Below, in pieces: positions 6,448-47,990 of a stretch of 64,000 bases of DNA. A model generated the notes under the pieces. It was not told the DNA's origin and did not search any database. It saw only the letters and a list, made by a program, of their open reading frames with translations. Origin of the DNA: Sphyrna mokarran (Eukaryota). Numbering within the stretch: position 1 is the stretch's first letter; each line of letters begins with the position of its first letter. The DNA is taken from assembly GCA_024679065.1 (NCBI GenBank), contig JAGIQG010000022.1, forward strand, positions 39,990,001 to 40,054,000. Reading direction: 5' to 3'. Both the position numbers and the translations under genes were made by a program.

Positions 6448-8624
6448 GGGGCAATTCTCCCAAAATAATTATAAGCGTTGAATTTGCGTGAAAACTAAAT
6501 TATCACCCTGTAAATCACCCTGTTTTTTTAGCAGGAGTTTTGAAATGAATCTTCCACATTCTGTGTACTGCAGAGGTCAGTAATGTGAATCATATTAAGA
6601 ATCTGGGGGCGGAGTCTATTCTCTCTGAAGACCCTGAAATCAGTGTGCTGAGTGGAGCCTGGACATGTGCACATCTCTAGGAGATCACCAAACAAGTCCT
6701 CCCAGCATAGACATTGCGGACCCCAATGGACATTACAGGCCTCATCATTATCCTCTCACTCCACTTCCACAAACGTTTCTGCCATATTGTTGGTCTCTCA
6801 CCCCCACCCCCCGCTCAATGAACATTTCTGCCCATTGGCTGACCTCTAACCCACACTTATCCCCTCCAAGAAAATTGCTGGCCTCTCAGCTCCTCATCCC
6901 CCATTGGAAATCACTGGCCTCCTAGCCTCCCCATTCCTCACTGACCTGGACATCAGTGGCCTCTCCATTCCAAACCATCCTCCCTTCACACACGAAGTAC
7001 TGGCCTCATTGCTGTCTTTCACACACAGAGCGCTGTATTGCCATGCACATCCCCTGCTGTGACTTTTCCACTCAAGTGAGAACCTTGAGCATTGCACCCT
7101 TCCCCACCTGACCATAGTACTTTGTTAAGTTCACCCAATCGGCAGCTTTGGAGATGGCTCAGCCTCTATTGAAACCAGGTTTTCCTAAACATTATTCACA
7201 TGCAGTTTAACTAACAAGTTCATGACTGGCCCAAACTGACTGCCTGGAGTCCCTTAACAAGCCAGAAATGTATGTAAGCTGCAATGATGGATGCACAGGC
7301 AGTCACACCAGGAAATGGCCCTGAAGAAAACAGCTCCAAGATTTTTGGAATCATGGATAGTCCCTGGGTGCCGTGCACAGACCTGCAGGATGATCACCTG
7401 GTGGTCACATACGATTTGTACATTGAGGGAGTGGAATCCCTTCCTGTTGATGAATGGTTTCTCTTCACCTTGTGGGGACTACAGGGCTATGTGTGTCCTA
7501 TCCATTGCCCCCTGCATATGGGGCATCCCAGCATTGGCAGTAAAGTTTGCAGCCCTGGCCCCCTGCTGACCTTGCCCGACATCAAAGTGGATGTATTGGC
7601 CTGACGGGTATATATAATATTGTCACCTGACTAATAAATCTGTGAACAGAGGCCTGAGAGATTCCACAAAGGTCACCACAGAGTGCCTGAAACAATCTTG
7701 TTGCATATAAGTGCAGCTGTCACCTTAATTTCTACTGACAGTGGGTGCCCCGCCCCCCCCCCCCCTGCCCTTGGGTGCCAGGTGTGTGAGCACCCCGCAT
7801 ATGTTCTGGACTGTGTCCTTGGATAGGCAGAGCAGGTGATGGCACATAATGTCCGACAGGCCCTCAAATGAATGCCTGGTGTGGTACCACCTTTGCCTTC
7901 CCATCCTCCTCCTGGCCACTCTTTCGAGAGACTCCTCCCATCTCCTGGCCAACAGCAGTAGTCCCCTCCCGTCATTTCTGAGGATCTGCCATGAGTTGCT
8001 GCTGCGATGGTCTCCCATACCCTCCACCTCCTGAGCCACCTGATCCACCTCCTCAGCCACCATTATAATGGCCAACTTTAATTCAGTCAGTTCCAAACCC
8101 ATTCTGCACAGTGCAAGTTAGAAGGAGAGAAGTTAATAGATTCGTGTCATTGCTTGCATCCACCCTAATTCCACCCCCCCCCCCCACTCTCTCATTAAGC
8201 CTCTAATCCCTCATTGGGTCCAGTACCCTCTCTTATGGATGCTGGCAATACAATCTGTGGTGCCATGTGTCACTTGATTAGGTTGCCTGCCATTGGCATC
8301 GTAAACGCAGCAGGCAAGGAGAGTATGCAGGTTGGTGTGTGGGCATGACCATTCTGCTCCCTTGAGCCATTGCCATGAGTGCAATGATAGCATTCCTTTC
8401 CAGGGCAGGGACAGACTTCTTTTATTACAGGATGGGTTCCTATTCACTGCAAACTACATGCAGTAGGAGTGTCAATGTTAACCTGAGCACCTCTGCTCAC
8501 AGTACCAGCTGCTTAAACTGATTAGCCTTCAAGCAGCACATGGTGCACTTCCCCTTGCCATCCCACCACCCCCCTCCACTGAAAGCCCAGTACTCAGTCT
8601 AGTCCCTCATCACACCCCACAGCC

Positions 8625-10975: not shown

Positions 10976-11510
10976 ATAGTAACAGAGAATAAGAATGGAG
11001 GGAGCCTCCTCCGTTTGATGGGATGTGACAGTATTAGGCAGGGATTGTTACTAGTCCTGTGAAATAAGTCCAAAAGAAAGTTTGGTGTGTTTTGTCCTTC
11101 AAAGTTTATGTTTGTTGCTATAAGAAATTTGCTCCTGCCACACATGATGCAAATATACAACTTCCAGCCTAAAAGTCTTTGACTTCTAGATAGTTCCTCC
11201 CTTCATCATGGTAAGATTCAGAACTGAAACTCAGTGATCCAGTTGTGGTCTCCAAATTGTGGTACCCTGGAAGATGTACTGCAAGACTTTTTGGAAGTCT
11301 TGCAAAGGAATTGCCGGGGAAGTTTCAACCTCCATTGACAATTACCCAGCACCTTGAACAACCCAAAACTCTGATTTAAATCACAGAGTTTGGATGGTTC
11401 TGACTTTTGTCAGACTAGTTAAGGATTAAAACCAATTCTAATTTACTGGGCATTGGAGGGCAGTATTGGAGATTGTGTCTTTTATATTTTAATTTATATG
11501 TCTGTTCATA

Positions 11511-12057
11511 TGTTATTTAATTTCAGCATAATACATGCAAGGCTACATAGAGCAAGCCCAGAGGGCCCGACCTCATCAGTGGGAAGGAAAGGGTTAATGC
11601 AGGTAGTTAGAGGCTTGAATTATCACGACAATGGGAGAACCAGCATTAAGACAGCCAGCTCCATATAGTCCAGGAAAGGTATAGTCTTTCATAAAACATG
11701 ATCATTAGCGGAGGGAGATAGCAATCAACACAAATTGTAAACACAGTGCAAACTGATTGGGCAAATACAACACTTTGACATTATAATCAGGTAAATGGAA
11801 CTACCAAGAAACTGATTAACAAAGTTGTACTGAACAATGCAGTCTGCGTAATGAGATTAAAAGAGCCATTTTGTATCCAACTCAAGGAACTAGTATGCTA
11901 ATATAAACCTTTGTGACTTGAAAAAGTATATTAACACATACCAAATCTACCAGGGACAGGGAGGACTCGCAAGCAACTTAAGGTTCAGGTTCGAGTTCAA
12001 CATTCATGCATGTTTGACATGGTCTCCAAGCTCGACTTGTTTCGTTTCCTTCCTACA
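11511..12057 (+). repeat. Putative 5' LTR of the endogenous retrovirus (start uncertain)
   Basis: Ends in ...cctaCA immediately before a TGG-initiated PBS-like sequence and retroviral gag/pol relics. No second LTR is present to confirm it. Confidence 0.5.
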
Positions 12058-12059
12058 AT

Positions 12060-12077
12060 TGGCACTGCGAGTCGGGT
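12060..12077 (+). promoter_or_regulatory. Putative primer-binding site, tRNA-Ser-like
   Basis: TGGCACTGCGAGTCGGGT starts 2 nt after the LTR-terminal CA. It resembles, imperfectly, the complement of vertebrate tRNA-Ser 3' ends as I recall them (TGGCGCTGTGAGCAGG). Confidence 0.5.
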
Positions 12078-12678
12078 ACCATACCGGACAACTGGCTCCA
12101 AGTCGAGTGAGTACGTTTATGTTACCATCTGTAGTTAGGGAGGAATTTCACACTAGTTGTTAGCTAGATATAAGTTGCAATACTAAAGAACTATATGAAG
12201 TAAAGTATGACCATGTGAGCTTGAAGGAAATTGAAGGGTAATACCATGCACTGGGGCATAGAATTGATAAGAAAACTTAAATAAGAAGTTTTTACAAAGT
12301 TTGCAAATAAATCTCACATCGGGGAAAAGGCAAAGAAAGGATTGATGGGTCTCGTTTACACTGAGGAGGAGTAGCTGCGAGAGAGAATTCCATGAGAGGT
12401 AAAGCCACCAAGGAATATTCTGCAAGAAAAGAGCCGGGGAAAAACATGAGTAAGAAAGATTAAAAGGTCTCGCTTACAGCGAGGAGGAGTAGCCACAAGG
12501 GAGAGTTCAGCCAGAGGGTAGAGTCACCCGCTGAATGAGAAGAGAGAGTGCAAAAGTGACCAAGATGACCAGGTGTAACAAACAGATGCCAGTACAGGGG
12601 ACAGGTGATTTATAATGGGGATTCGCGGGATCTATCATACAAAGTATAGTTGATCATAATATAAAATTGATTAAGAAA

Positions 12679-14080
12679 ATGACGGCTAAGGATTAAACCT
12701 AGATGCCTCTGTGGCCAAGCAGAAGGCCTGGTGGAGTGGGCAAACTAAAAATAATATGAGAAGGCAGTCATAGTTGCAACAGCCATATTGAAAAACCAAG
12801 GAATAAGAGAGCATCATGAAACTAGAATAGCAGCTGTGAGAAGTGTGTGGGAAGGGGACAGGAACAAACCACATGGACGATTGATGGGGGCTGTGGTACC
12901 AACAGCATCAGACTTACTTGAGGACAGTGACTACTAGGCCGAATGGGACAGTTTAGAGGAAGGGATATAGTGGAGTAGACATTATGGTCATGAGTACCTG
13001 TTTCTTCCTCCGTACAGGGAGGAAGGCGAGCCACACCCCATAACCCCTTTGCGAGTGTAAGGAAGACCGCAGATGACAAAGCACTGAGCAANNNNNNNNN
13101 NNNNNNNNNNNNNNNNNNNNNNNNNNNNNNNNNNNNNNNNNNNNNNNNNNNNNNNNNNNNNNNNNNNNNNNNNNNNNNNNNNNNNNNNNNNNNNNNNNNN
13201 NNNNNNNNNNNNNNNNNNNNNNNNNNNNNNNNNNNNNNNNNNNNNNCGAACTACTCTCTATGAAATGACAGAATGAGTTTGTGATCTTGTCTCCCCGTTT
13301 TGCCCAGCACACCTTTTGGTCATGCCCTGACTTCAGCAATTCCAGAATCTTAATGGGCCTGGTCCACAATTCTGGTCAAATCTGGACCCATTTCGTCAGT
13401 CAACATTTTTAAAAAAGATTTCTTTGTCCCAGTGTGGGATGGCTACCCTGAATGGTGTTTGTATGCCTCAAACTTCCTCTCTGCATAGTCCTCTACCCTT
13501 TCCTTTGGCCCTTGCTTAATCAGCATAATCAGCGTCCAGTTTGGGCTGCTCCTTCCCAGGGTAGTTCTTACTGCTAATTTAAAAGCCGCAAAGCCGGTCT
13601 CTTTGCTCATCCCTCCGGTGATCCATGTGCAATCTCTGAACGGCAGTGGCATGCCTGCTCAAATGTGGGGATCTTTGCCCTCAACAATAAATGAACAACC
13701 TTTGCCCAGGGCAGAATGTGTTTTTGGTATTAGATATTGCCAATGGGTTCTGGTTCAGCCCTGTGTGCAGGCAACTTCAGGATTACTTGGCATTTATGGT
13801 AGGGGAAGATCAATATAGCTGGATTCGATTGCCCCAAGGATTTCACAAGGGAGCTTATTCAAGGAAGGGGCGTAAGATGAGCCCCATGGAAAGGATAGAT
13901 GGAGAAAGGCAGTGCTACAACTATGGAAAGGAAAGGCCAGAGAATACAGGGCCAAGAAAGAGCAGGGACTGGGCCCACTGAGATGCTGGAATTGCTGGAA
14001 GTCAGGGCATGACCAGAAGGCTTGCTGGGCAAAAGGGCCAAGACAAGGAAGGTCAGGGACCCATTGCTGTAAAGAATAGT
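12679..14080 (+). pseudogene. gag: ERV gag relic, rearranged and spanning an assembly gap
   Basis: LPPY at 13004-13015. An MHR-like IKQGPKERVEDYAERKFEAY lies on the minus strand (inverted block, ORF 13443-13652). Zinc knuckles QCYNYGKE (degenerate) and RCWNCWKSGHDQKACW lie on the plus strand at ~13910-14030. Confidence 0.75.
13092..13246. other. Assembly gap (155 N)
   Basis: Run of n in the sequence. Confidence 1.
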
Positions 14081-15620
14081 GGGGGGTTCGGAGCCCCTGA
14101 TTGATGATACATGTCTCAGTGGAGAATCTGGCAAAGATGTTTGGCGCGATGAAGCAATAATCATTCACGGCTCTTAGAGGGAAGGAGAGGGATTCCCAAA
14201 TACTTACTGACGTGCTGTTAAGAAGTTGGCAATGTATAGTGTTAATAGATACAGGATCCTCAATATCCTAGCCCTAACTCATATAACTGTCCAGATCCTG
14301 GGAGTAATATATAGTGTTCATGTGGTGACATTCAGCGAGCCCATTCCCCTGGAAATTAAAGATTTTATGGTAAAAATCCAAGTTTGGGTATGGAACTATA
14401 TTAGGGATAGACTGGCTGGAACAACTGGGGGCCGTAATTGACAAAAAATGGACCAAAGGGGAGGAAAATCTGACATTATGTCTGAAATATTGCTTCAGTT
14501 ACTACAGCAAGGGAACAACAAGGAATGTGGGGAATAATTGCACAGGCATACCCAGCAATGTGGGCACAAGGCAAGCAAGATTGTGGGAGGTTGGAGATTT
14601 TTTTCCATTGCGATAAAGAGAGACGAACATCCACCTCATCAGCAGTACCTCCTCAAAAAGGAGGCTTTAGAGGCGGTATGGGTCATAGTACAGGAACCCC
14701 AGGAGCAGAGAGTAGTGAAAAGAGCCCATTCATCTACCAAGTCCCAGATTTGGGCAGTGAGAAAACTGGACAGCTCTTGCTGACTCACAGTAGACTATAT
14801 CAGCCTCAACAAACACACAGTAAGAGAATATCCCATAGTGGTAAACCCAACCACGATATGGAATAACCTTTGCCCAGAGCAGAGTGTGTTTTTGGTATTA
14901 GACATTGCCAATGGGTTCTGGTTCAGTCCGGCATGTGAGGAACTTCAGGATAATTTGGCATTTACCGCAGGGGTGGATCAATATAGCTGGATTCGATTGT
15001 CCCAAGGATTGCACAACAGCCTGGCCATATTCCACAGACATATGGCCCAGATATTAGCCCAGATTGACCTTAGTGGGACACAGAGCACCATGCTGTAGTA
15101 TGTTGACAACATCCTGATAGCATCAAGGAGGAGAAAGACCACATAATTGTCCTAACCTGGATTTTAGCAACCATATAGTGATACGGCCTTAAGATCAACA
15201 CTAGGAAGGCACAGCTGGGGTGGGATGAGGTGGCATATTTAGGCTACCATATTACACAAGGAATGAAGAGAATCCCAGAAGTAAAAAAGAAAGCCATTCT
15301 ACAGATGCCAAAATTGCAGACCCTCGATTGTGGTGGGGGTGAGGAACAGGAGAGGACTTCAGGCAAGTGCTTGCGTTATTTAATTACTGCAAGAATTTTG
15401 AAGAGAACTTCTCAGGACTTGCTGAACCCTTGCTAAAATTGGCCAGCAGGGGTAAGCAATCTTGGGAATGAGTAGAATCGAGATCGGAACAGGACACTGC
15501 CTTTGAAAAGATAAAGCATGCCCTCACAGTAGCCCCAGCCCTGGGGTTATCAGCCTTGACAAACCCTTCCACATATATTTCTACAATGAAGGGGAATACT
15601 ACATGGCAGTAGTGGGCCAG

Positions 15621-15791
15621 AAACATAGAACATTACAGCACAGAACAGGCCCTTCGGCCTTCGATGTTGTGCCGACCAAAATAAAAAGCAATGCCCCTCC
15701 AAACTAAACCATTCCCTTCTCTTCCATATACTTATCAATTAACCTCTTAAACGCCAAAGAGGTTAATTGATAAGTATATGGAAGAGAAGGG
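15621..15791 (-). mobile_element. Short CR1 3' end inserted in ERV pol, with an inverted 5' segment
   Basis: CR1 tail (catagaacattacagcacagaacaggcccttcggcc) plus a perfect 35-bp inverted repeat. Confidence 0.8.
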
Positions 15792-16139
15792 GCAAGATGT
15801 AGCCAGTAGCATATTATTCAGCAAAATGAAGTCCTGTAGTAACAGGATTACACTGGTGCATACAGACATTGGACATGTGGGCAATAGAGACATCAGAACT
15901 GGTAGCGCTTCTGGGAGCAATTATACTCCACTCCTCTCATTCCATAGTGCAGCTATTAGAAGCAGGAAGGTTAAGTGCAGTTTCCAACAGCTGCCGAGCA
16001 AAGTGCGAGAGTATGTTATTCCCGGTGGATAAGCGCATACAAATAGTAAAAGGCTTTGGCCTCAACCCCACATCCACGTTAGTTAGTGAGGGTACAGAGC
16101 ATAGATGTTTAGAGAAAGTTGATGAAGGCCAAAGTTGCT

Positions 16140-16262
16140 AGATAGACTTTAGGCATAGCCTAAAGTCATGGATATGTCATTAAGACGTTAGGACGGCGGC
16201 GTGGGTTCGTTGGGCCGAAGGGCCTGTTTCCCGTGCTGTGTTGCTCTTTGTTTTTTGTTCTA
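16140..16262 (+). mobile_element. CR1-type 3' tail inserted between the tether and RNase H
   Basis: gggccgaagggcctgtttcccgtgctgtgttgctctttg is a CR1-type tail, and retroviral frames continue on both sides. Confidence 0.7.
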
Positions 16263-16874
16263 TATGAAGGAATGGAATTACAATAGATAGATCTGGGACA
16301 TATCATGAGGGGGTCCCACGTGCAGCATGGGTGGTAGTGGATAAAACAGGCACTGTATTAAAGATCCCAGGGACTGAGTCAGCCCAAGTAACAGCCCTAA
16401 CAGAGGCATTGTGACGAGCCGTGGAATAGAAGGCTAACATTTACACCAATAGTCGTTACACATTTGGGGTCATTCATCACTATATGGTAGCTTGAGCTCG
16501 ACGGGGATACATAACTTCCTCAGAGGGCCACGTACAGCATGCGTATTGCGTAAAAGAGTTGGTAGAGTCAGTTAAAGCACCCGCAGCAGCTGCAGTACTT
16601 AAGCTAAGTGCACACAATCCCTGTACAATCCCTGCTGCACCAGGGCAACGATTATGCACACAGGATAGCCAAAGCCCTCACATCACAGGCTCAGAAAGTG
16701 CAGGGGGAAGATGTAAAACCAGTTGCTGTGCACAAGCATGATTCAGATACTGTAGGGAAAGTACAACTAGTTGCAAAGAGGAAGATTCAAATAACATCTG
16801 GAGGAAAAATGGCGTATAGTAACACTGCAATATACAAGGCAAACCTTAGTGAATTCCAGCAAAATTCCAGCATA

Positions 16875-25241: not shown

Positions 25242-27272
25242 CATGATGTAGAGATGCCAGCGTTGGACTGGGGTAAACACAGTAAGAAGTCTGACAACAC
25301 CAGTTTTAAATCCAACTGATTTATTTGATAGTAAACTCGTAAGTGTTCGGCTCTCTGGCCTTCGTCAGGCGAATGAGGTGTTCCAGCACAGACAGTTTAC
25401 AGATTACTGATTAGAATGCGAATCTTTACAACTAACCTGCTATTCAAGTCTTAAAGTGGCTAATAATGTGAGTGGAAGGAGCACTGAGCACAGGTTAAAG
25501 AGATGTATATTATCTCCAGACAGCACAGGTTTTTTGCGAACCCAGGCAAGTCATGGGGGTTACAGCTAGTGTGACATGAAGCCAAGATCCCTGTTAAGAC
25601 TGTCCTCATGGCGGAACTTGGCTATCAGTCTCTGCTCAGTGGCTCTGCGCTGTTGTGTGTCGTGAAGGCCCCTTGAAGAATGTTTACCCGAAGGTCGGAG
25701 GCCGAATGCCCATGACTTCTGAAGTGTTCACCAACAGGAAGGGAACAGTTTTGCCTAGTGATTGTTGAGTGATGTTCTTTCATCTGCTGTCATAGTGTCT
25801 GCATAGTCTCCCCAACGTACCATGCTTTAGGACATCCTTTCTTGCAACGTATTAGGTAGACAACGTTGGCCGAGTTGCAGGAGTATGTACCGTGTACCTG
25901 GTGAATGGTATTCTCACGTTTGATGACGTCATCCATGTCGATGATCTGGCATGACTTGCAGAGGTTGCTGTGGCAGGGTTGTGTGGTGTTGTGGTCACTG
26001 TTCTCCTGAAGGTTGGGTAGTTTGCTGTGAACAATGGTCTGTTTGAGGTTGCACGGTTGTCTGAAGGCAAGAAGTGGGGGTGTGGGGATGGCCCTAGCGA
26101 GATGTTCATCATCATCAATGATATGTTGAAGACTCCGGAGAATATGTCGTAGCTTGTCCGCTCCGGGGAAGTACTGGACAACACAGGGTACTCTGTCCAC
26201 CATGTCCCGTGCTCGTCTTCTGAGGAGGTCAGTGCGGTTTATCGCTGTGGCACGTCGGAACTGTCAATCGATGAGTCGAGTGCCATATCCTGTTCTCACG
26301 AGGGCATCTTTCAGCATCTGGAGATGTCTGTCACGATCCTCCTCATCTGAGCAAATTCTGTGTATACGAAGGGCTTGACCGTAAGGGATGGCCTCTTTAA
26401 CGTGTTTAGGGTGGAAGCTGGAGAAGTGGAGCATTGTGAGGTTGTCTGTCGGCTTGCGGTACAGTGAGGTGCTGAGGTGACCGTCCTTGATGGAGATGCG
26501 TGTGTCCAAGAATGCAACTGATTCTGGAAAATAGTCCATGGTGAGTCTGATGGTGGGATGGAACTTGTTGATATCATCATATAGTTGTTTCAATGATTGT
26601 TCACCATGAGTCCAAAGGAAAAAAAATGTCATTGATGTATCTAGCGTATAGCCTCAGTTGAAGATCCCGTGCAGTGAAGAAGTCTTGTTCAAACCTGTGC
26701 ATGAAGATGTTGGCGTATTGAGGTGCGAATTTGGTCCCCGTGGTTGTTCCGTGTCTGGATGAAAAGCTGATTGTTGAAAGTGAAGACATTGTGGTCCAAG
26801 ATGAAGCGGATAAGTTGTAAAATTGCATCCAGAAACTGGCAGTTGTTGGCATTGAGTACTGAGGCAGTTGCAGCAATGCCATCGTTGTGGGGATGTTGGT
26901 GTAGAGTGCCGAGACATCCATTGTGACAAGGAGTGTCCCTGGTTCAACTGATCCATGTGTGCTGAGTTTCTGTAGGAAGTCCGTAGTGTCGCGACAAAAG
27001 CTGGGGGTTCTTTGTATAATGGGTTTCAGGATGCCCTCGACAGAGCCGGAGAGGTTCTCACACAGGGTCCCTTTGCCTGATACGATGGAACAGCCGGGTA
27101 TGTTTGCCTTGTGTATCTTTGGGAGGCAGTAGAGATCTCCAATGCAGGGAATACGTGGAATGAGAGCCGGGAGGGTGTTCTGAAGGTCCGGATTAAAAGT
27201 TTTGATCAGAGTGTTGAGTTGATGAGTGTGTTCTTTGGTCCGATCTGAAGTAGTGTAACAATCACATCCCAA
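25242..27272 (-). mobile_element. Penelope-like retroelement (RT plus GIY-YIG endonuclease), 5'-truncated and frameshifted
   Basis: LYCLPKIHK, TMDVSALYTNIP, GTKFAPQYANIFM, YARYINDIF, TSLYRKPTD, and GIY-YIG VVYLIRCKKGCPKAWYVGET. Confidence 0.95.
25335..25374 (-). ncRNA. Minimal hammerhead ribozyme motif with mutated core
   Basis: Minus strand reads attcgc CTGACGA a ggc cagaga gcc GAAC actt acgagt. The core has GAAC in place of GAAA and stem I has one mismatch. Confidence 0.6.
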
Positions 27273-27485
27273 GCTTCTTCCCTGCTGCCATCAGACTTTT
27301 GAATGGATTTAACTTATATTAAGCATTGATCTTCCTCTACACCCTAGATATGACTGCAACATTCCGCACCCTTCCTTTCCTTTTCTATGTATAGTACACT
27401 TTGTTTGTATAGCGTGCAAAAAACTATACTTCTCACTATATATTAATACATGTGACAATAATAAAGCAAATCAAATCAAAATCTT
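27270..27485 (+). mobile_element. Rex1/Babar 3' end
   Basis: agcttcttccctgctgccatcagacttttgaatgg...aataataaagc followed by an (aaatc)n tail. Confidence 0.8.
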
Positions 27486-28659
27486 CTTCAGAAAGTAGGA
27501 GAAAGTTGGGAGGTTAAATGCAGCAGCTAACTTTAAATTAATTTGCATTAATTGCATAATACATAATGATCTCAATCAAGCTTGGCATCCATTTACCAAT
27601 ATTAAGATGTAGCCAAAATAGAAAATTAATGTGTATCCTGTTAGTTTAATCCAAATAAGCCTGGACTCATTCTGATACGTGGAAAGGGAGCTTGGCAACT
27701 GTCAGAGGTTATCTGGTGTTATGCCAGTCTCTGTAGCTGCAATGGAAAACCATGCACAGATTATCTCAGCGAAACCTGGGAAGTGGGAACAAGCATTTAG
27801 TAATTCAGATAATGAAGTACATGTTGTCCAGGCTGACAAATGTGAGCCAACTCTCACTTAGTCTGCCAGAAGTGAGTTTGATAGTTTCTGGTCAGATTGT
27901 GAAGTGGTGTATAATCACTGCCGTGACTGAGAGAAGCAAAGGTAGAGAGCCTGGGAGGTGGGAGGAATAAAGCTGATGTTTTCCTTCCTTCACATATACT
28001 TCCCGTCAGCTGGTCATTCCCACATTCCTCTGTGGAAGAACTGTTGATAAGATCCTGACTTTAGCAGGGAAGTGGAGTGGAAATGGTGGAGTAGTTGTTG
28101 TCATTCTAGCTGCGAAACTTCAAATATTGACACCCACTGACCTGGTTCACATGAGAGTAGAGACAACTTGTACAAGGTAGGAGAAGGATCTAATCCAGAA
28201 GAACATTCCAAATGCAGAAAAAGTTGGGAAATAAGTAAAAGGCTGAAAAACAGAAAACATTAATAGTTATTTTTTGATGGAGGAAGTATACATTGGGTTT
28301 GCTCAAGGGTCAGTGGCTGGACACCTGCTTTTTCTGATATATACTGATGACCTAGTCTTGGATAGGCAGGGCACATTTTCAAAATTTGCGCATGACACAA
28401 AATTTAGAAGTATTATGAACAATGAGAATAACAATAAACAGAGAGGATACAAACAGGTGGGATGGGCGAACAAATGATGGATGAACTTTAATGCAATAAT
28501 TATCAAGTGATACATTTTGACAGGGAGAACAAGAAGAGGCAATTTGAAATAAAGGATACAGTTTGAAAGAGAATGCAGGGACAGAAGGACCTGAAGGTAT
28601 GTGTGCACAACTCATTAATAATGGTAGGTCAGGTTGACAAAGCGATAAATAAAGTAACC

Positions 28660-28830
28660 ATAGAATAGAATCATAGAATCCCTACAGTGCAGAGGGATCA
28701 ATAACAGTCCTACTCAGGCCCTCTTCTGTAATTCCACAAATTTACCCTAGCTAGTCTCCCTGACACAAGGGGTAATTTAGCATAGCCAATCCATCTAAGT
28801 TGCGCATCTTTGGAGAGTGAGAGGAAACCA
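28660..28830 (-). mobile_element. HE1-like SINE, partial
   Basis: (atagaatc)n tail and ttagcatagccaat core. Confidence 0.75.
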
Positions 28831-28929
28831 GAGTGGATCCTGACTTTAGTAGAAAAACAAGGAAGTTATGATCAACTTTAGTAAACCACTGGGTCAGCTG
28901 CAGCCAGAGTATTGTGTTCATTTCTGTTT

Positions 28930-29218
28930 AAATTTTTACTTAATAGTGTCACAAGTAGGTTTACATTAACACTGCGATGAAGTTACTGTGAAAATCCACA
29001 ATTCACCACACTCCGGCGCCTGTTTGGGTATATCAAAGGAGAATTTCTCATGGCCAATGACCTAACCAGCACATCTTTTGGACTGTGGGAGAAAATTGAA
29101 GCACCCGAAGGAAATGCGCGCAGACACAGAGAGAATGTACGGATTCCGCACAGAGGCCCCAGCTGGGAATTGAGCCCAGGTCCCATGAGGTAGCAGTGCT
29201 GATCATTGTGCTGCCCCA
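28930..29218 (-). mobile_element. HE1-like SINE, alternative-tail subfamily
   Basis: Same head and V-domain, but the tail is cacagtaacttcat..cagtgttaatgtaa..ctacttgtgacact. Confidence 0.85.
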
Positions 29219-30391
29219 GGCCACTACACTTTCAAAGGATGTGACAGTATTGGAGAGGGTACAGAAAAAAATGAACAAAAATCTCTCTACAGATAAGGAA
29301 CTTCAGTTACGTGGGTAGGTTGAAGAAGTTGAGCTATTCTCTTTGCTTAAGAGAAGATTAACAGAAGATTTTGTTTTTAAATCATGTGGAGTCTGAATGG
29401 AGTAGAGGCAGAAACTACCCTCATCAGCAGAAGGATCAAGAAGAAGGGGGCACCAATTTAAGGTGAGTGGCAAAGAAAACAATAGCGACATGAAACTTTT
29501 TTTTACACAGTGGGTGTTTAGAATTTGGAATGTGCTGCCTGAGAATATGGTAGAGGCTAATTCAATTGTGGGTTTTGAAGGTAATTGGATTATTATATGA
29601 AGAAAAATAAATATCAGCCCTGTGAGGAAAGGGCAGGATGTGGGACTGGATGTGTTGCTCTTGCAAAGGACTAATATGACCATAAAAAGCCAAATGGTTT
29701 CTTTCTGTGCTATAACCATTCTATGATTCCATGATTTTACAAAAAGAATGTTTCAATCCATTCTTGGTGTTCCAGGTGACATGGTGGTATGCTTGCTTTT
29801 TATACAAGGTGTAATTATAATTTTATTTTGAGATTAATCATGGCCGCTGAGCCAAGTTTACACTCAGTTTATTAATCACTTTCTAACTTACCCTGCTACC
29901 CTCAATAAATTGTGATTGAGTTATACTGTGACAATTTTTCTGTTTCGGGAATTAATGATTTAAAAGGACATCAGTAAGTGATTTACAAGGTTTATTTTAA
30001 TGATTACTTTGCATCTTTCAAGTTGACAAAAGCTAGTGCTGCAGAATATGGTAGAGGCTAATTCAATTGTGGGTTTTGAAGGTAATTGGATTATTATATG
30101 AAGAAAAATAAATATCAGCCTGGACTCATTCAAAAAATAAAAAAAATAGTGCTCTGGTTCAACATTACCCAGCTTAAAACTCGGATAGTTTGAAACACAA
30201 CAATACTCCAGCAAATGTCTCAGTCCTCATCCTTAGGGCAACAGACCTTTACTTTCATATTTTCACCTTCCTGTGACTCTTTTTTACTTATTTGTGGGAC
30301 ATGGGCATTGCTGAATGGCCAGCATTTATTGTACATCCCTAGCTGCCCTTAAGAAGATGGTGGTGAGCTGCCTTCTTGAATTGCTAGTAGT

Positions 30392-31420
30392 CATGATGTA
30401 GAAATGCTGGCGTTGGACTGAGGTAAACACAGTAAGAGGTCTGACAACACCCTCATCGTCACCCTGGCTAACAATGTGAGTGGACAGAGTACCCTTTGTT
30501 GTCCAGTACTTCCCCAGAGCAGAGAAGCTACGACATATTCTCCGGAGTCTTCAACATATCATCGATGATGATGAATATCTCGCCAGGGCCATCCCCACAC
30601 CCCCACTTCTTGCCTTCAGACAACTGCGCAATCTTAAACAGACCATTGTTCACAGCAAACTACCCAACCTTCAGGAGAACAGTGACCACAACACCACACA
30701 ACCTTGCCACAGCAACCTCTGCAAGACATGCCAGATCATCGACATGGATGACATCATCAAACGTGAGAATACCATTCACCAGGTACATGGTACATACTCT
30801 TGCAACTTGGCCAACGTTGTCTACCTAATACATTGCAAGAAAGGATGTCCCGAAGCATGGTACATTGGGGAGACCATGCTGACACTACGACAGCAGATGA
30901 ATGAACATCGCTCAACAATCGCCAGGCAAAACTGTTCCTTTCAGTGGTCACGGGCATTCGGCCTCCAACCTTCAGGTAAACATTCTTCAAGGGGGCCTAC
31001 ATGACACACGACAGTGCAGAGCCGCTGAGCAGAGACTGATAGCCAAGTTCCGCACACATGAGGACGGTCTTAACAGGGATCTTGGCTTCATGTCACACTA
31101 TCTGTAACCCCCATGACTTGCCTGGGTTAGCAAAAAACCTCACTTACTGTGCTGTCTGGAGACAATACACATCTCTTTAACCTGTGCTTAGTGCTCCTTC
31201 CACTCACGTTGTTAGCCACTTTAAACTTGAATAGCAGTTAGGTGTAAAGATTTGCATTCTAATCAGCAATCTATAAACTGTCTGTGCTGATACATGTGCT
31301 ATTGCAGACCAGAATACCTCATTCGCCTGAAGAAGGCCATAATAGCCGAAAGCTTGCGAGTTTACTATCAAATAAATCGGTTGGATTTAAAAATGGTGTT
31401 GTCAGACCTCTTACTGTGTT
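30392..31420 (+). mobile_element. Penelope-like element (GIY-YIG end plus terminal region) with an inverted terminal copy at its 5' end
   Basis: ORF 30480-31004 is nearly identical to 25790-26203. Part of 30392-30451 is the reverse complement of its own 3' end (31395-31420). Confidence 0.95.
31321..31361 (+). ncRNA. Minimal type I hammerhead ribozyme in the Penelope terminal region
   Basis: attcgc CTGAAGA a ggc cataata gcc GAAA gc tt gcgagt: 6-bp stem I (one G-U), core CUGAnGA...GAAA, 3-bp stem II and palindromic AAGCTT in the stem III position. Confidence 0.75.
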
Positions 31421-46690: not shown

Positions 46691-47990
46691 CTCGTATTCA
46701 CTCCATATCTGGCTGGGGTCGATACCCCTCCTCCTTCTGTAGTTGATCTCCCCACTGCTGTGCAGTGTTGTACAGATGCAGCTGACTGTATGAGGCCCAC
46801 ATAGGATCGTACTGTCGGGCACTTCCCAAGCAGTCCAGACAACAGACTGCATCTTCAACAGGCTTCTACAACAATGGACCAAGTGGCAGCACAAGCCTCA
46901 TTGTAGCTGTCCTCAGCCTCGGTCTCAGGCCTCCACACTGGCATCATCAGGCAGGGCCTCAGCAGGTAGCCCTCGTCTCCCAGGAGCCATCCCAGGAGCC
47001 TGGGTTGGTCTCCAAAGAGCAGGAATGTCTGACTGCTTCAGCACAAAACTGTCAAGAAACTGTCATGGGTGGCATGCACAGACCTGCATGATGATCACAT
47101 AAGATTTGTATACTGAGGGAGTGGAATCCCTTCCTGTTGATGATTGGTTGCCCCTCACCTAGTGGGGACCACAGAGCAATATGTGTCCCATCCTCTTCTC
47201 CCTGCACATGTGGCATCCCAGCAATGGCAGTGAAGTCTGCAGTCTTGGCCTCCTGCTGACCCTGTCCAACATCAAAGTGGATGAATCAGCCGGCCCAGAT
47301 GTACATGGCATCTGTCACCTGACTAATACATTCTACAAATGTCCCAACTGGGTGCCTGGTGTAGAAGTTGAGTGCTGTCTCACCTTAACTTCTATAAGAA
47401 TGTATGGCCATTCCTCCCCTGAGGTGCCAGATCTGTGAGGATCTCATAACAGGTGCCGCATCATATCATTAGTTAGGGGGAGTTCACAACGTTACATGGC
47501 TTCCAATAGGCCCTCAAATGACCCCCTGTTCCTATATTGCCTAGGACCCTACATCCTCCTTCTCCTGGCCCCCGCTCTTTGGGAGACTGCTGTCCCACCT
47601 CATAGGAAACACCAGCAGACCTCTGCCGTCCTCCCTCTGCCACTGGCTGCTCCAGAATGGCCTCCCCTACGCCTTCCACCTCCAGAGCTGACTGCTCCTT
47701 TGTGGCCACCATGATGGCCAGCTCCACACCAATAATTCCAAAATCCATTCTGTACAGTTGGGGTTAGAGAGAGTGATTGATATATACATATCATTGCTTG
47801 TAACTATCCCAGCAACCACCTCCATCCCTAAAACCTCAGCACTCAGTGCAGTTTCTCACCACACCCCACAGTCAGAACAATGGAACAGCCCAGTGGTTGC
47901 AGACAACAGTCTGTCCAGCAGTCAGAAAAGGAGTCCATCCCAACCCACAGACACTCTATGGAACATCTCTGAGCCTGGGGACAGCATGTG
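46690..47990 (-). mobile_element. Second Harbinger (HARBI1-like) transposase relic
   Basis: [14 protein letters not shown] and GWLLGDEGYLLRPCLMMPV...EDSYNEA. Collinear with 7290-8110. Confidence 0.85.

Follow-up and report, generated by a model that had tools for sequence, protein, structure and literature searches.

The element is the dead, rearranged 5' part (about two-thirds) of an old provirus, and it survives as a partly inverted relic in the window, the 64-kb stretch of the Sphyrna mokarran genome analyzed here. The phylogeny of its reverse transcriptase (RT) and the composition of its Gag suggest that it is probably a member of the grade around snakehead retrovirus (SnRV-like, or "Huo") in class III and that its parent likely replicated as an ordinary enveloped orthoretrovirus. 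It likely represents a family not described before, of a kind already known, and not a new virus lineage. The sequence-only reading had pointed to a lokiretrovirus, which is excluded by the RT tree, the AU test, the RNase H tree, and the RT motifs. Its fallback, a related basal lineage and possibly an undescribed elasmobranch family, stands, and the RT trees bear out a basal retrovirus that is neither Gypsy nor a gamma/epsilon ERV.

The order LTR, tRNA-Ser primer binding site (PBS), gag, protease, RT, tether, and RNase H is kept, and the provirus breaks at the start of integrase. The element runs from about 11451 to about 16846, and not from 11511 to 16870 as first proposed. This copy retains no integrase core, no env, and no 3' LTR, and no second LTR match was found within the 64-kb window. 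The 5' LTR (11451-12057, plus strand, about 607 bp) ends in TACA and matches both ends of sibling elements; its starting TG is present in sibling copies and decayed at this locus. Of the 40 scored among 263 candidates, 39 are other places in the genome with 71-82% identity to the LTR. The PBS (12060-12077, plus strand) matches the host tRNA-Ser(TGA) L226 at 14 of 18 positions, and nothing else on either strand of the window matches as well; the match is 18/18 in two siblings (L210 and L215). A first tRNA pattern search had given 0 matches, and the later matching to host tRNAs agrees with the tRNA-Ser-like PBS originally described. Flanking repeats of 5 bp (5/5 and 4/5) are found at the two solo LTRs with both ends readable among 13 loci examined. 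The element is a member of a multi-copy family in this genome, and its siblings still carry integrase and an env-like gene.

The gag region is broken up and partly inverted. Its decayed 5' part, in the matrix region (12590-13091, plus strand), resembles the N-terminus of the Heterodontus Gag-Pol protein P0010 weakly by tblastn (E 0.034). It contains LPPY (13004-13015, plus strand, read directly), which may be a late-domain-like motif. A run of Ns (13092-13246) is followed by an inverted piece on the minus strand (13247-13690), the strand opposite to that in siblings L027 and L029. This piece holds the C-terminal part of capsid, the major homology region (MHR), and a second copy of the last knuckle (13307-13333, 84-86% identical to 13966-14047), and it is 31% identical to P0010 Gag over 124 amino acids (E 1e-7). 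The MHR had been correctly noticed, but it lies on the minus strand (13470-13514), in an inversion that had been missed. Next comes a duplicated RT fragment of 156 bp (13693-13848, plus strand), 88% identical to 14861-15016; a single contig of run X1 (13565-13914), free of errors, covers both of its junctions. The nucleocapsid (13853-14100, plus strand) has an intact CCHC knuckle, CWNCWKSGHDQKAC, at 13984-14025 and a decayed one that starts at 13913 in a different frame; the sequence-only reading had likewise named two knuckles, one of them degenerate. This region has no Pfam match at E 0.1, and it is 52% identical to the SnRV nucleocapsid over 25 amino acids (E 0.003). The Gag of P0010, a shark-clade relative, also has two CCHC knuckles, and from the MHR through the knuckle it is 28% identical to SnRV Gag over 186 amino acids (E 2e-10).

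The pol domains are all on the plus strand. The protease (14150-14475) is frameshifted; its motifs, LIDTGS (14242-14259) and ILGxDWL, were read directly, and it is 74% identical in nucleotides to sibling L029. RT and the start of the tether (14601-15621; PF00078, E 9e-6) are spread over three frames with stops. LDIANGFW is found at 13730 and 14898, YSWIRL(P/S)QG(F/L)H at 13814 and 14982, and YVDNI at 15099. The RT motifs are present as described, but the first set belongs to the duplicate lodged in gag. The tether is interrupted by a high-copy repeat (15622-15791), perhaps SINE-like, with 96-99% matches in unrelated loci and very high contig depth. The rest of the tether (15792-16144) is 38% identical over 114 amino acids to residues 824-936 of P0010, a region assigned to PF17919/PF17917 by Pfam. 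A second, younger repeat (about 16145-16283) is missing from a contig of run X3 that joins 16144 to 16284. RNase H (16284-16740; PF00075, E 9e-6) is followed by a linker and the first integrase codons (16741-16846), and similarity to sibling L023 ends at 16846. The tether with a separate RNase H holds up, except that the tether is broken up by the two high-copy repeats. All of the motifs first listed (LPPY, LIDTGS, the RT set, MHR, knuckles, and PBS) are present by direct reading and Pfam.

The motifs do not point to lokiretroviruses. LD(L/I)xNGFW had been taken as a spumavirus-type signature, but LDxxNGFW is not diagnostic because it is common to SnRV, Loki, and foamy viruses. Similarly, a tether with a separate RNase H is not diagnostic of Loki because it is common to all retroviruses. 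The combination of an MHR with a CCHC knuckle, read earlier as part of a Loki-like mixture, is the Gag pattern of SnRV. The family's RT motifs (YPIV, LDI(A/S)NGFW, WxRLPQGFH, and LQYVDD) are those of the SnRV row in the Loki supplement, whereas its Loki rows have WNRCPFGYSNSP and GNLIYVDD.

RT phylogeny places the element in a shark clade within the retroviruses. Over the core, its RT is 49% identical in amino acids to P0122, 36% to SnRV, and 31-32% to the Loki references. A second comparison gives RT identities of 48% and 42% to the shark proteins P0125 and P0010, 32% to SnRV, and 28-29% to the Loki references. Of 195 RT rows, 121 with at least 190 residues were kept after near-duplicate removal, and 53 and then 40 were picked by hand. 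The outgroup rows are Gypsy-type by motif. The Loki references P0091 and P0102 were recognized by motifs that they share unchanged with Loki rows of the supplement, and P0079 by its position in the tree. The trees do not contain fish foamy-like ERVs, CmiERV-I, or labelled Odin references. Database neighbors came from a query with the sibling-family RT and are therefore biased toward that family; a protein search with the element's own RT gave no match, nor did a viral-contig search with the sibling-family RT, and a metagenome pattern search for fish foamy-like RT gave 0. In the 53-row tree, the element's family (100/100) lies within a 10-row shark clade (99/95) that includes the Heterodontus and Mustelus proteins, and Loki branches off as the sister group of all retroviruses (99/95). 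The base of this tree is a polytomy. The mixture-model tree of 40 rows again has the shark clade (99/95) with Loki outside (98/97). The element nests neither in Gypsy, from which two starred branches separate it, nor in class I and II, which form a 100/99 branch without it, nor in the mammalian-type foamy viruses, which form their own 100/100 clade. In the RNase H tree (41 rows) it is in a shark clade (95/87) outside a Loki and foamy group (89/84), which was recovered as published and flagged as a long-branch join.

Integrase and Env, known from siblings, differ from those of SnRV. In a tree of 40 rows, three sibling integrases fall with gamma, epsilon, and Loki in a 96/97 group that leaves SnRV outside; they share this broad group with Loki, yet are not its sister, and CGIN1 is not among the rows. 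A sibling integrase scores 112 bits against Loki and 70 bits against SnRV. Integrase and env can thus be read from other copies in the genome, as the sequence-only reading had proposed; the fusion class of Env is ambiguous. The family Env has no significant similarity to SnRV Env, no Pfam or PDB match, and no match to the Env of the L031 family. Its catshark homologue P0161 (57% identical) lacks the N-terminal part. A likeness of P0161 to SnRV Env seen by eye was borne out neither by hhalign nor by shuffling (score 32 against a mean of 33.8 for shuffled sequences), and neither P0161 nor its profile nor SnRV Env had a PDB match. An AlphaFold model of Env was poor (pLDDT 47.6), and a fold search from it was empty. 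PF00523 had no match in Env, and a genome-wide search for it gave 0, its control being likewise silent. In sibling Envs a fusion-peptide-like stretch follows a basic cleavage site, about 300 codons precede the site in two siblings, and by eye the site and the cysteine spacing recall Loki/F-type Env.

The SnRV-like assignment, with monophyly assessed on RT only although Huo is defined on Pol, has two features in its favor. The RT lies inside Retroviridae and outside the class I, class II, foamy, and Loki clades, and the Gag is of orthoretrovirus type (MHR, CCHC) and homologous to SnRV Gag. Integrase and Env are not of SnRV type; these are features of SnRV itself and are not stated as defining the clade. 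Against this assignment, the shark clade and SnRV are never joined with support in any tree. The shark clade and a few fish relatives could instead be a separate, unnamed basal lineage nearer to the foamy/class I stem, with integrase and env of other origin, an unlikely but appreciable alternative. In the mixture tree, an 85/83 branch separates SnRV from the shark clade, which falls on the foamy/class I side, the AU test comes near to rejecting SnRV as direct sister (p 0.055), and the integrase and Env stand apart from those of SnRV. However, the 85/83 branch, like other deep branches, is unstarred, a clade that unites a broad SnRV-like set is acceptable (p 0.36, with groups named after the tree was seen), and Gag is detectably homologous to that of SnRV. 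A review (PMC8922424) also describes RT positions as unstable and RNase H and integrase as replaced several times. A version of the separate lineage in which Env is a rhabdovirus/Monjiviricetes-type (class III) glycoprotein, not a class I fusogen, would be quite improbable. It is suggested by language-model neighbors of the P0161 Env (score 0.95, 194/256 features), while the same tool gives F-type families for SnRV Env. The incomplete N-terminus of P0161, the sibling cleavage site and fusion-peptide-like stretch, and the cysteine spacing, which by eye recalls F-type Env, argue against it. If true, this would be a vertebrate retrovirus with a captured fusogen of a third kind.

A foamy virus or fish foamy-like ERV is very improbable. 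The best PDB matches of the RT are foamy RTs (E 1.5e-12), with SnRV absent among the matches listed, the AU test allows foamy viruses as the sister group (p 0.06), and a catshark "ERV-Spuma.0-Sca" has been published (PMC10699275). However, true foamy viruses group without the element, its RNase H is outside foamy and Loki, and its knuckles and tRNA-Ser PBS differ from the fish foamy-like ERVs, which in the available text of PMC5210030 have Gags without Cys-His boxes and mostly use tRNA-Lys. The chance of a lokiretrovirus, the first in cartilaginous fish, is slighter still, although the dual RNase H layout, the NGFW motif, the sibling integrase scores, and the Env cleavage site and cysteine spacing would fit. 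Grouping of the shark clade with Loki is refuted by the AU test (p 7e-5), unless the three Loki references are mislabelled. The RNase H and integrase trees keep the two apart, the Loki RT motifs are missing, RT identity is low, and PF00523 is silent. A Loki-motif pattern had 0 exact matches in the genome, a result that says little about decayed copies. The chance of a Gypsy or Odin retrotransposon, or of a layout produced by the assembly, is close to negligible. The N run adjoins the inversion, and Odin also has dual RNase H in the accessible part of PMC9040795. Against this, the two starred branches and the env-like genes of siblings argue against Gypsy, and an assembly artefact is at odds with duplicated pieces that differ by 12-16% and a short-read contig that spans both junctions.

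The SnRV-like reading suggests the following history. Minus-strand synthesis of the parent virus would have been primed on host tRNA-Ser(TGA), its RNA packaged via two zinc knuckles, and its budding helped by a PPY late domain. It may have entered cells by a cleaved, membrane-anchored Env, and its integration may have duplicated 5 bp of the target. Once in the germ line, this copy would have lost integrase, env, and the 3' LTR, and further damage probably included the inversion, two short duplications, and two repeat insertions, with neutral decay. This copy appears to be shared with another species and could therefore give a minimum age.

Sharks carry several families of a clade that is well supported and apparently without a name, at the poorly resolved base of retroviruses. 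A Loki identity, now excluded, would have added cartilaginous fish to the Loki hosts. The shark clade combines an SnRV-like Gag, an integrase on the gamma/epsilon/Loki side, and an Env not assigned to a class. Such families are of modest use for resolving the class III grade and for tracing how domains were swapped. As a truncated and scrambled copy, this one is a poor representative.

The closest parallels are in fish and sharks. SnRV-like ERVs have been described in elephant shark (CmiERV lineage I, PMC4422223), which is likened here by its published description, and clade Huo is found in all major vertebrate lineages (PMC6001957; see also PMC4977317). SnRV (L059, 10,688 nt), itself from a fish host, shares the RT motif set, the detectably homologous MHR and CCHC Gag, the tether and RNase H outside the Loki/foamy group, and a long surface part ahead of the cleavage site in Env. 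It differs in having one knuckle instead of two and another PBS sequence than the tRNA-Ser type, its integrase is in another group, its Env is not alignable, and no sister relationship is supported. Loki (PMC7947760) shares the LTR-gag-pol-env layout, dual RNase H, xNGFW, and the broad integrase group, but differs in RT and RNase H phylogeny and RT motifs. The F2 part of its Env is short (about 100 amino acids in the four Env rows shown) compared to about 300 codons in two siblings, and the one Loki Gag read by eye over its whole length, Loki-Xtr, has no Cys-His box. That paper screened five cartilaginous fish genomes, none of which is positively marked, on our understanding of its asterisk. 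Some Loki members also carry an smc-like gene; in the element, the 5' region is too decayed for comparison. Foamy viruses and fish foamy-like ERVs share LDxxNGFW and give the best PDB match, but the element differs from them (PMC5210030) in its Cys-His boxes, its tRNA-Ser primer, its RNase H group, and its separate RT clade. The nearest relatives are annotated only as uncharacterized proteins: Mustelus asterias XP_078069418.1 (P0125) and Heterodontus francisci XP_067870587.1 (P0010) belong to the same RT clade, and Scyliorhinus torazame XP_072343881.1 (P0161) is the catshark Env homologue, all three from families other than that of the element.

The element at window positions 11451 to about 16846 is a real but dead, scrambled endogenous retrovirus (ERV). 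All motifs listed in the sequence-only reading are present in a six-frame reading of the window, but their arrangement is not as described there: the MHR lies on an inverted gag piece, and one set of RT motifs is a duplicate. Pfam detects RT and RNase H, with two of 14 pieces at E < 1e-5, and the layout was derived from self-comparison of the window and comparison with sibling copies. The 5' LTR (11451-12057) is followed by the PBS (12060-12077), a decayed 5' gag up to 13091, a run of Ns (13092-13246), the inverted gag piece (13247-13690) with the MHR and an additional copy of the last knuckle, and a 156-bp RT duplicate (13693-13848) that shares 88% identity with the main RT. Next come nucleocapsid, protease, RT, tether and RNase H, in that order. 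The tether is interrupted by two high-copy repeats, the provirus breaks off where integrase begins, at about 16846, and comparison with siblings revealed no second LTR within the window. Divergence between the duplicated pieces is 12-16%, and both junctions of the RT duplicate are crossed by a single error-free contig from sequencing run X1, possibly the source sample, so the rearrangement is an old one rather than a product of misassembly. A sibling provirus (L029) likewise has a displaced, inverted gag piece (1537-1665 of that locus), with a different breakpoint.

The family is numerous, and some of its members are more complete. At least 150 RT matches were found in the 2.77-Gb genome (150 of 150 scored, from 657 candidates), the LTR occurs at 39 other places among 40 scored of 263 candidates, and there are 96 env matches from 144 candidates. 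Pol identity to the window ERV is 74-79% in six siblings. The sequence-only reading had called for a search for full-length copies, and several siblings retain an integrase core (PF00665), an env-like gene and a pair of LTRs spaced about 9 kb apart. The suggested tRNA-Ser-like PBS is borne out: a tRNA-Ser(TGA) gene was located in the host genome, the window matches it at 14 of 18 positions, and no other window position scores that high. A PBS-like stretch is present in seven of the fetched copies; two of these match at 18/18, three at 14-16, and two are gap-shifted. Flanking 5-bp repeats are present at two solo LTRs (5/5 and 4/5), the ones with both ends readable among 13 loci.

The two LTRs of a copy share 81-83% identity across aligned blocks in three cases and 74% in a fourth. 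We calculate that a divergence of 18% corresponds to about 47 Myr under a rate of 2.2e-9 per site per year and to about 200 Myr under 0.5e-9 (the rates cited in PMC7947760 and PMC10699275), so the age of the family can be expressed as old and nothing finer. The window insertion is likely common to another species (run X3, one study), since X3 contigs, about 8-10% diverged, extend past the 3' break into the neighbouring sequence and are without the 16145-16283 insert. The closest named proteins make a shark the likely host.

Several other elements were encountered. L031/L032 (G000:C224, about 19.512-19.522 Mb) represents another family from the shark clade; it has integrase and a pair of LTRs with 89% identity over about 660 bp. 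Its RT has 81% identity to a database protein (P0001), its env-like frame could not be aligned to the window-family Env, and its PBS differs from that of the window family and is presumably tRNA-Pro-like. L039 (G000:C1215, about 108.164 Mb) is a further basal ERV with an RT frame open for 529 aa, and it clusters with Latimeria and Rhinophrynus proteins, not the shark clade. Four env matches (L185, L191, L192 and L194; G000:C1548, 109.9-110.2 Mb) lie within 300 kb, two scoring identically, and are likely a segmental duplication. At 25276-31420 in the window, a decayed RT (PF00078, E 5e-4) sits between inverted repeat arms that are about 940 bp long and 88% complementary, a layout that we take to be reminiscent of a Penelope-like element with inverted pseudo-LTRs. 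A decayed DDE_Tnp_4 (Harbinger-type) transposase (E 6e-7) lies at about 7300-8100 on the reverse strand, and part of another copy lies near 47089-47291.

Contrary to the proposal made from its motifs, the window ERV is not a lokiretrovirus; it most likely represents an undescribed shark family within class III, in the SnRV-like grade. In the main RT tree (53 rows, 268 columns) lokiretroviruses are sister to all retroviruses (99/95), repeating the published result. The window family (100/100) falls inside the retroviruses, in a 10-row clade (99/95) that also holds other families of the same genome and Heterodontus and Mustelus proteins; the rows nearest to this clade are fish proteins or unnamed ones (94/85 and 82/80). 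A mixture-model RT tree of 40 rows agrees. Joining the shark clade to lokiretroviruses is rejected (AU test, p 7e-5); p is 0.06 with foamy viruses as sister, 0.055 with SnRV (snakehead retrovirus) alone and 0.36 with a 25-row SnRV-like set. The RNase H tree reproduces the published grouping of lokiretroviruses with foamy viruses (89/84, long branches), and the window lies outside this group, again contrary to a lokiretrovirus. In an integrase tree with three siblings and no outgroup, the shark clade (95/94) belongs to a 96/97 group with gamma, epsilon, lokiretroviruses and other basal elements from fish and turtles, and is not sister to lokiretroviruses. SnRV is outside this group, which counts against simple SnRV membership. 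Lokiretrovirus integrases nest (99/99) with those of proteins from Latimeria and Rhinophrynus and of turtle 'NYNRIN-like' proteins, all with RTs of a non-lokiretrovirus type, and this may point to the donor of the lokiretrovirus integrase.

The SnRV reference (L059) has motifs identical to the SnRV row in the PMC7947760 supplement, and its length is the 10,688 nt given in PMC12193657. P0091 and P0102 bear the lokiretrovirus motifs of that supplement, and P0079 groups with both at 100/100. Foamy rows were labelled from motif and tree. The labels WDSV, Xen1, beta, delta, lenti, ERV-L/S and gamma are presumed from genome lengths, motifs and tree position. SnRV-like ERVs have been reported from elephant shark (PMC4422223), and the literature searched held no report of lokiretroviruses in cartilaginous fish. 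No publication naming the family was found in a search that stopped short of subscription papers and repeat libraries.

The sibling env-like gene begins with a signal-peptide-like segment and carries a basic cleavage site, the motif LGDIGxLF and a transmembrane stretch. Among 1.84 billion representatives it has a single full homologue, from a catshark (Scyliorhinus torazame XP_072343881.1; 57% identical). This is annotated as a 362-aa open gene ending in a transmembrane helix; the family env copies read are broken. The catshark gene may be a young copy, or else an env that was co-opted. Pfam and PDB searches with it gave no match, its similarity to SnRV Env is not significant, and its predicted structure is poor. 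Its nearest atlas feature neighbours are Monjiviricetes and rhabdovirus glycoproteins (0.95); those of SnRV Env are Baculo_F, Fusion_gly and Gypsy Env.

The RT, Gag and Env can be compared with those of known retroviruses. The xNGFW motif, offered earlier as a spumavirus-type signature, is found in SnRV, lokiretrovirus and foamy RTs and is thus no argument for a spumavirus. Lokiretroviruses have WNRCPFGY, or a PFGY variant, whereas the window family and SnRV have WxRLPQGFH at the same place. Fish foamy-like Gags are described in PMC5210030 as being without Cys-His boxes. The Gag of SnRV combines an MHR with a CCHC knuckle, a pattern also found in the window family; the window knuckle is 52% identical to SnRV Gag over 25 aa (E 0.003), and the alignment of the Heterodontus francisci relative (XP_067870587.1) to SnRV Gag extends for 186 aa (E 2e-10). 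Judged by eye, the window-family Env is reminiscent of both lokiretrovirus and SnRV Env in its cleavage layout and in how its cysteines are spaced.
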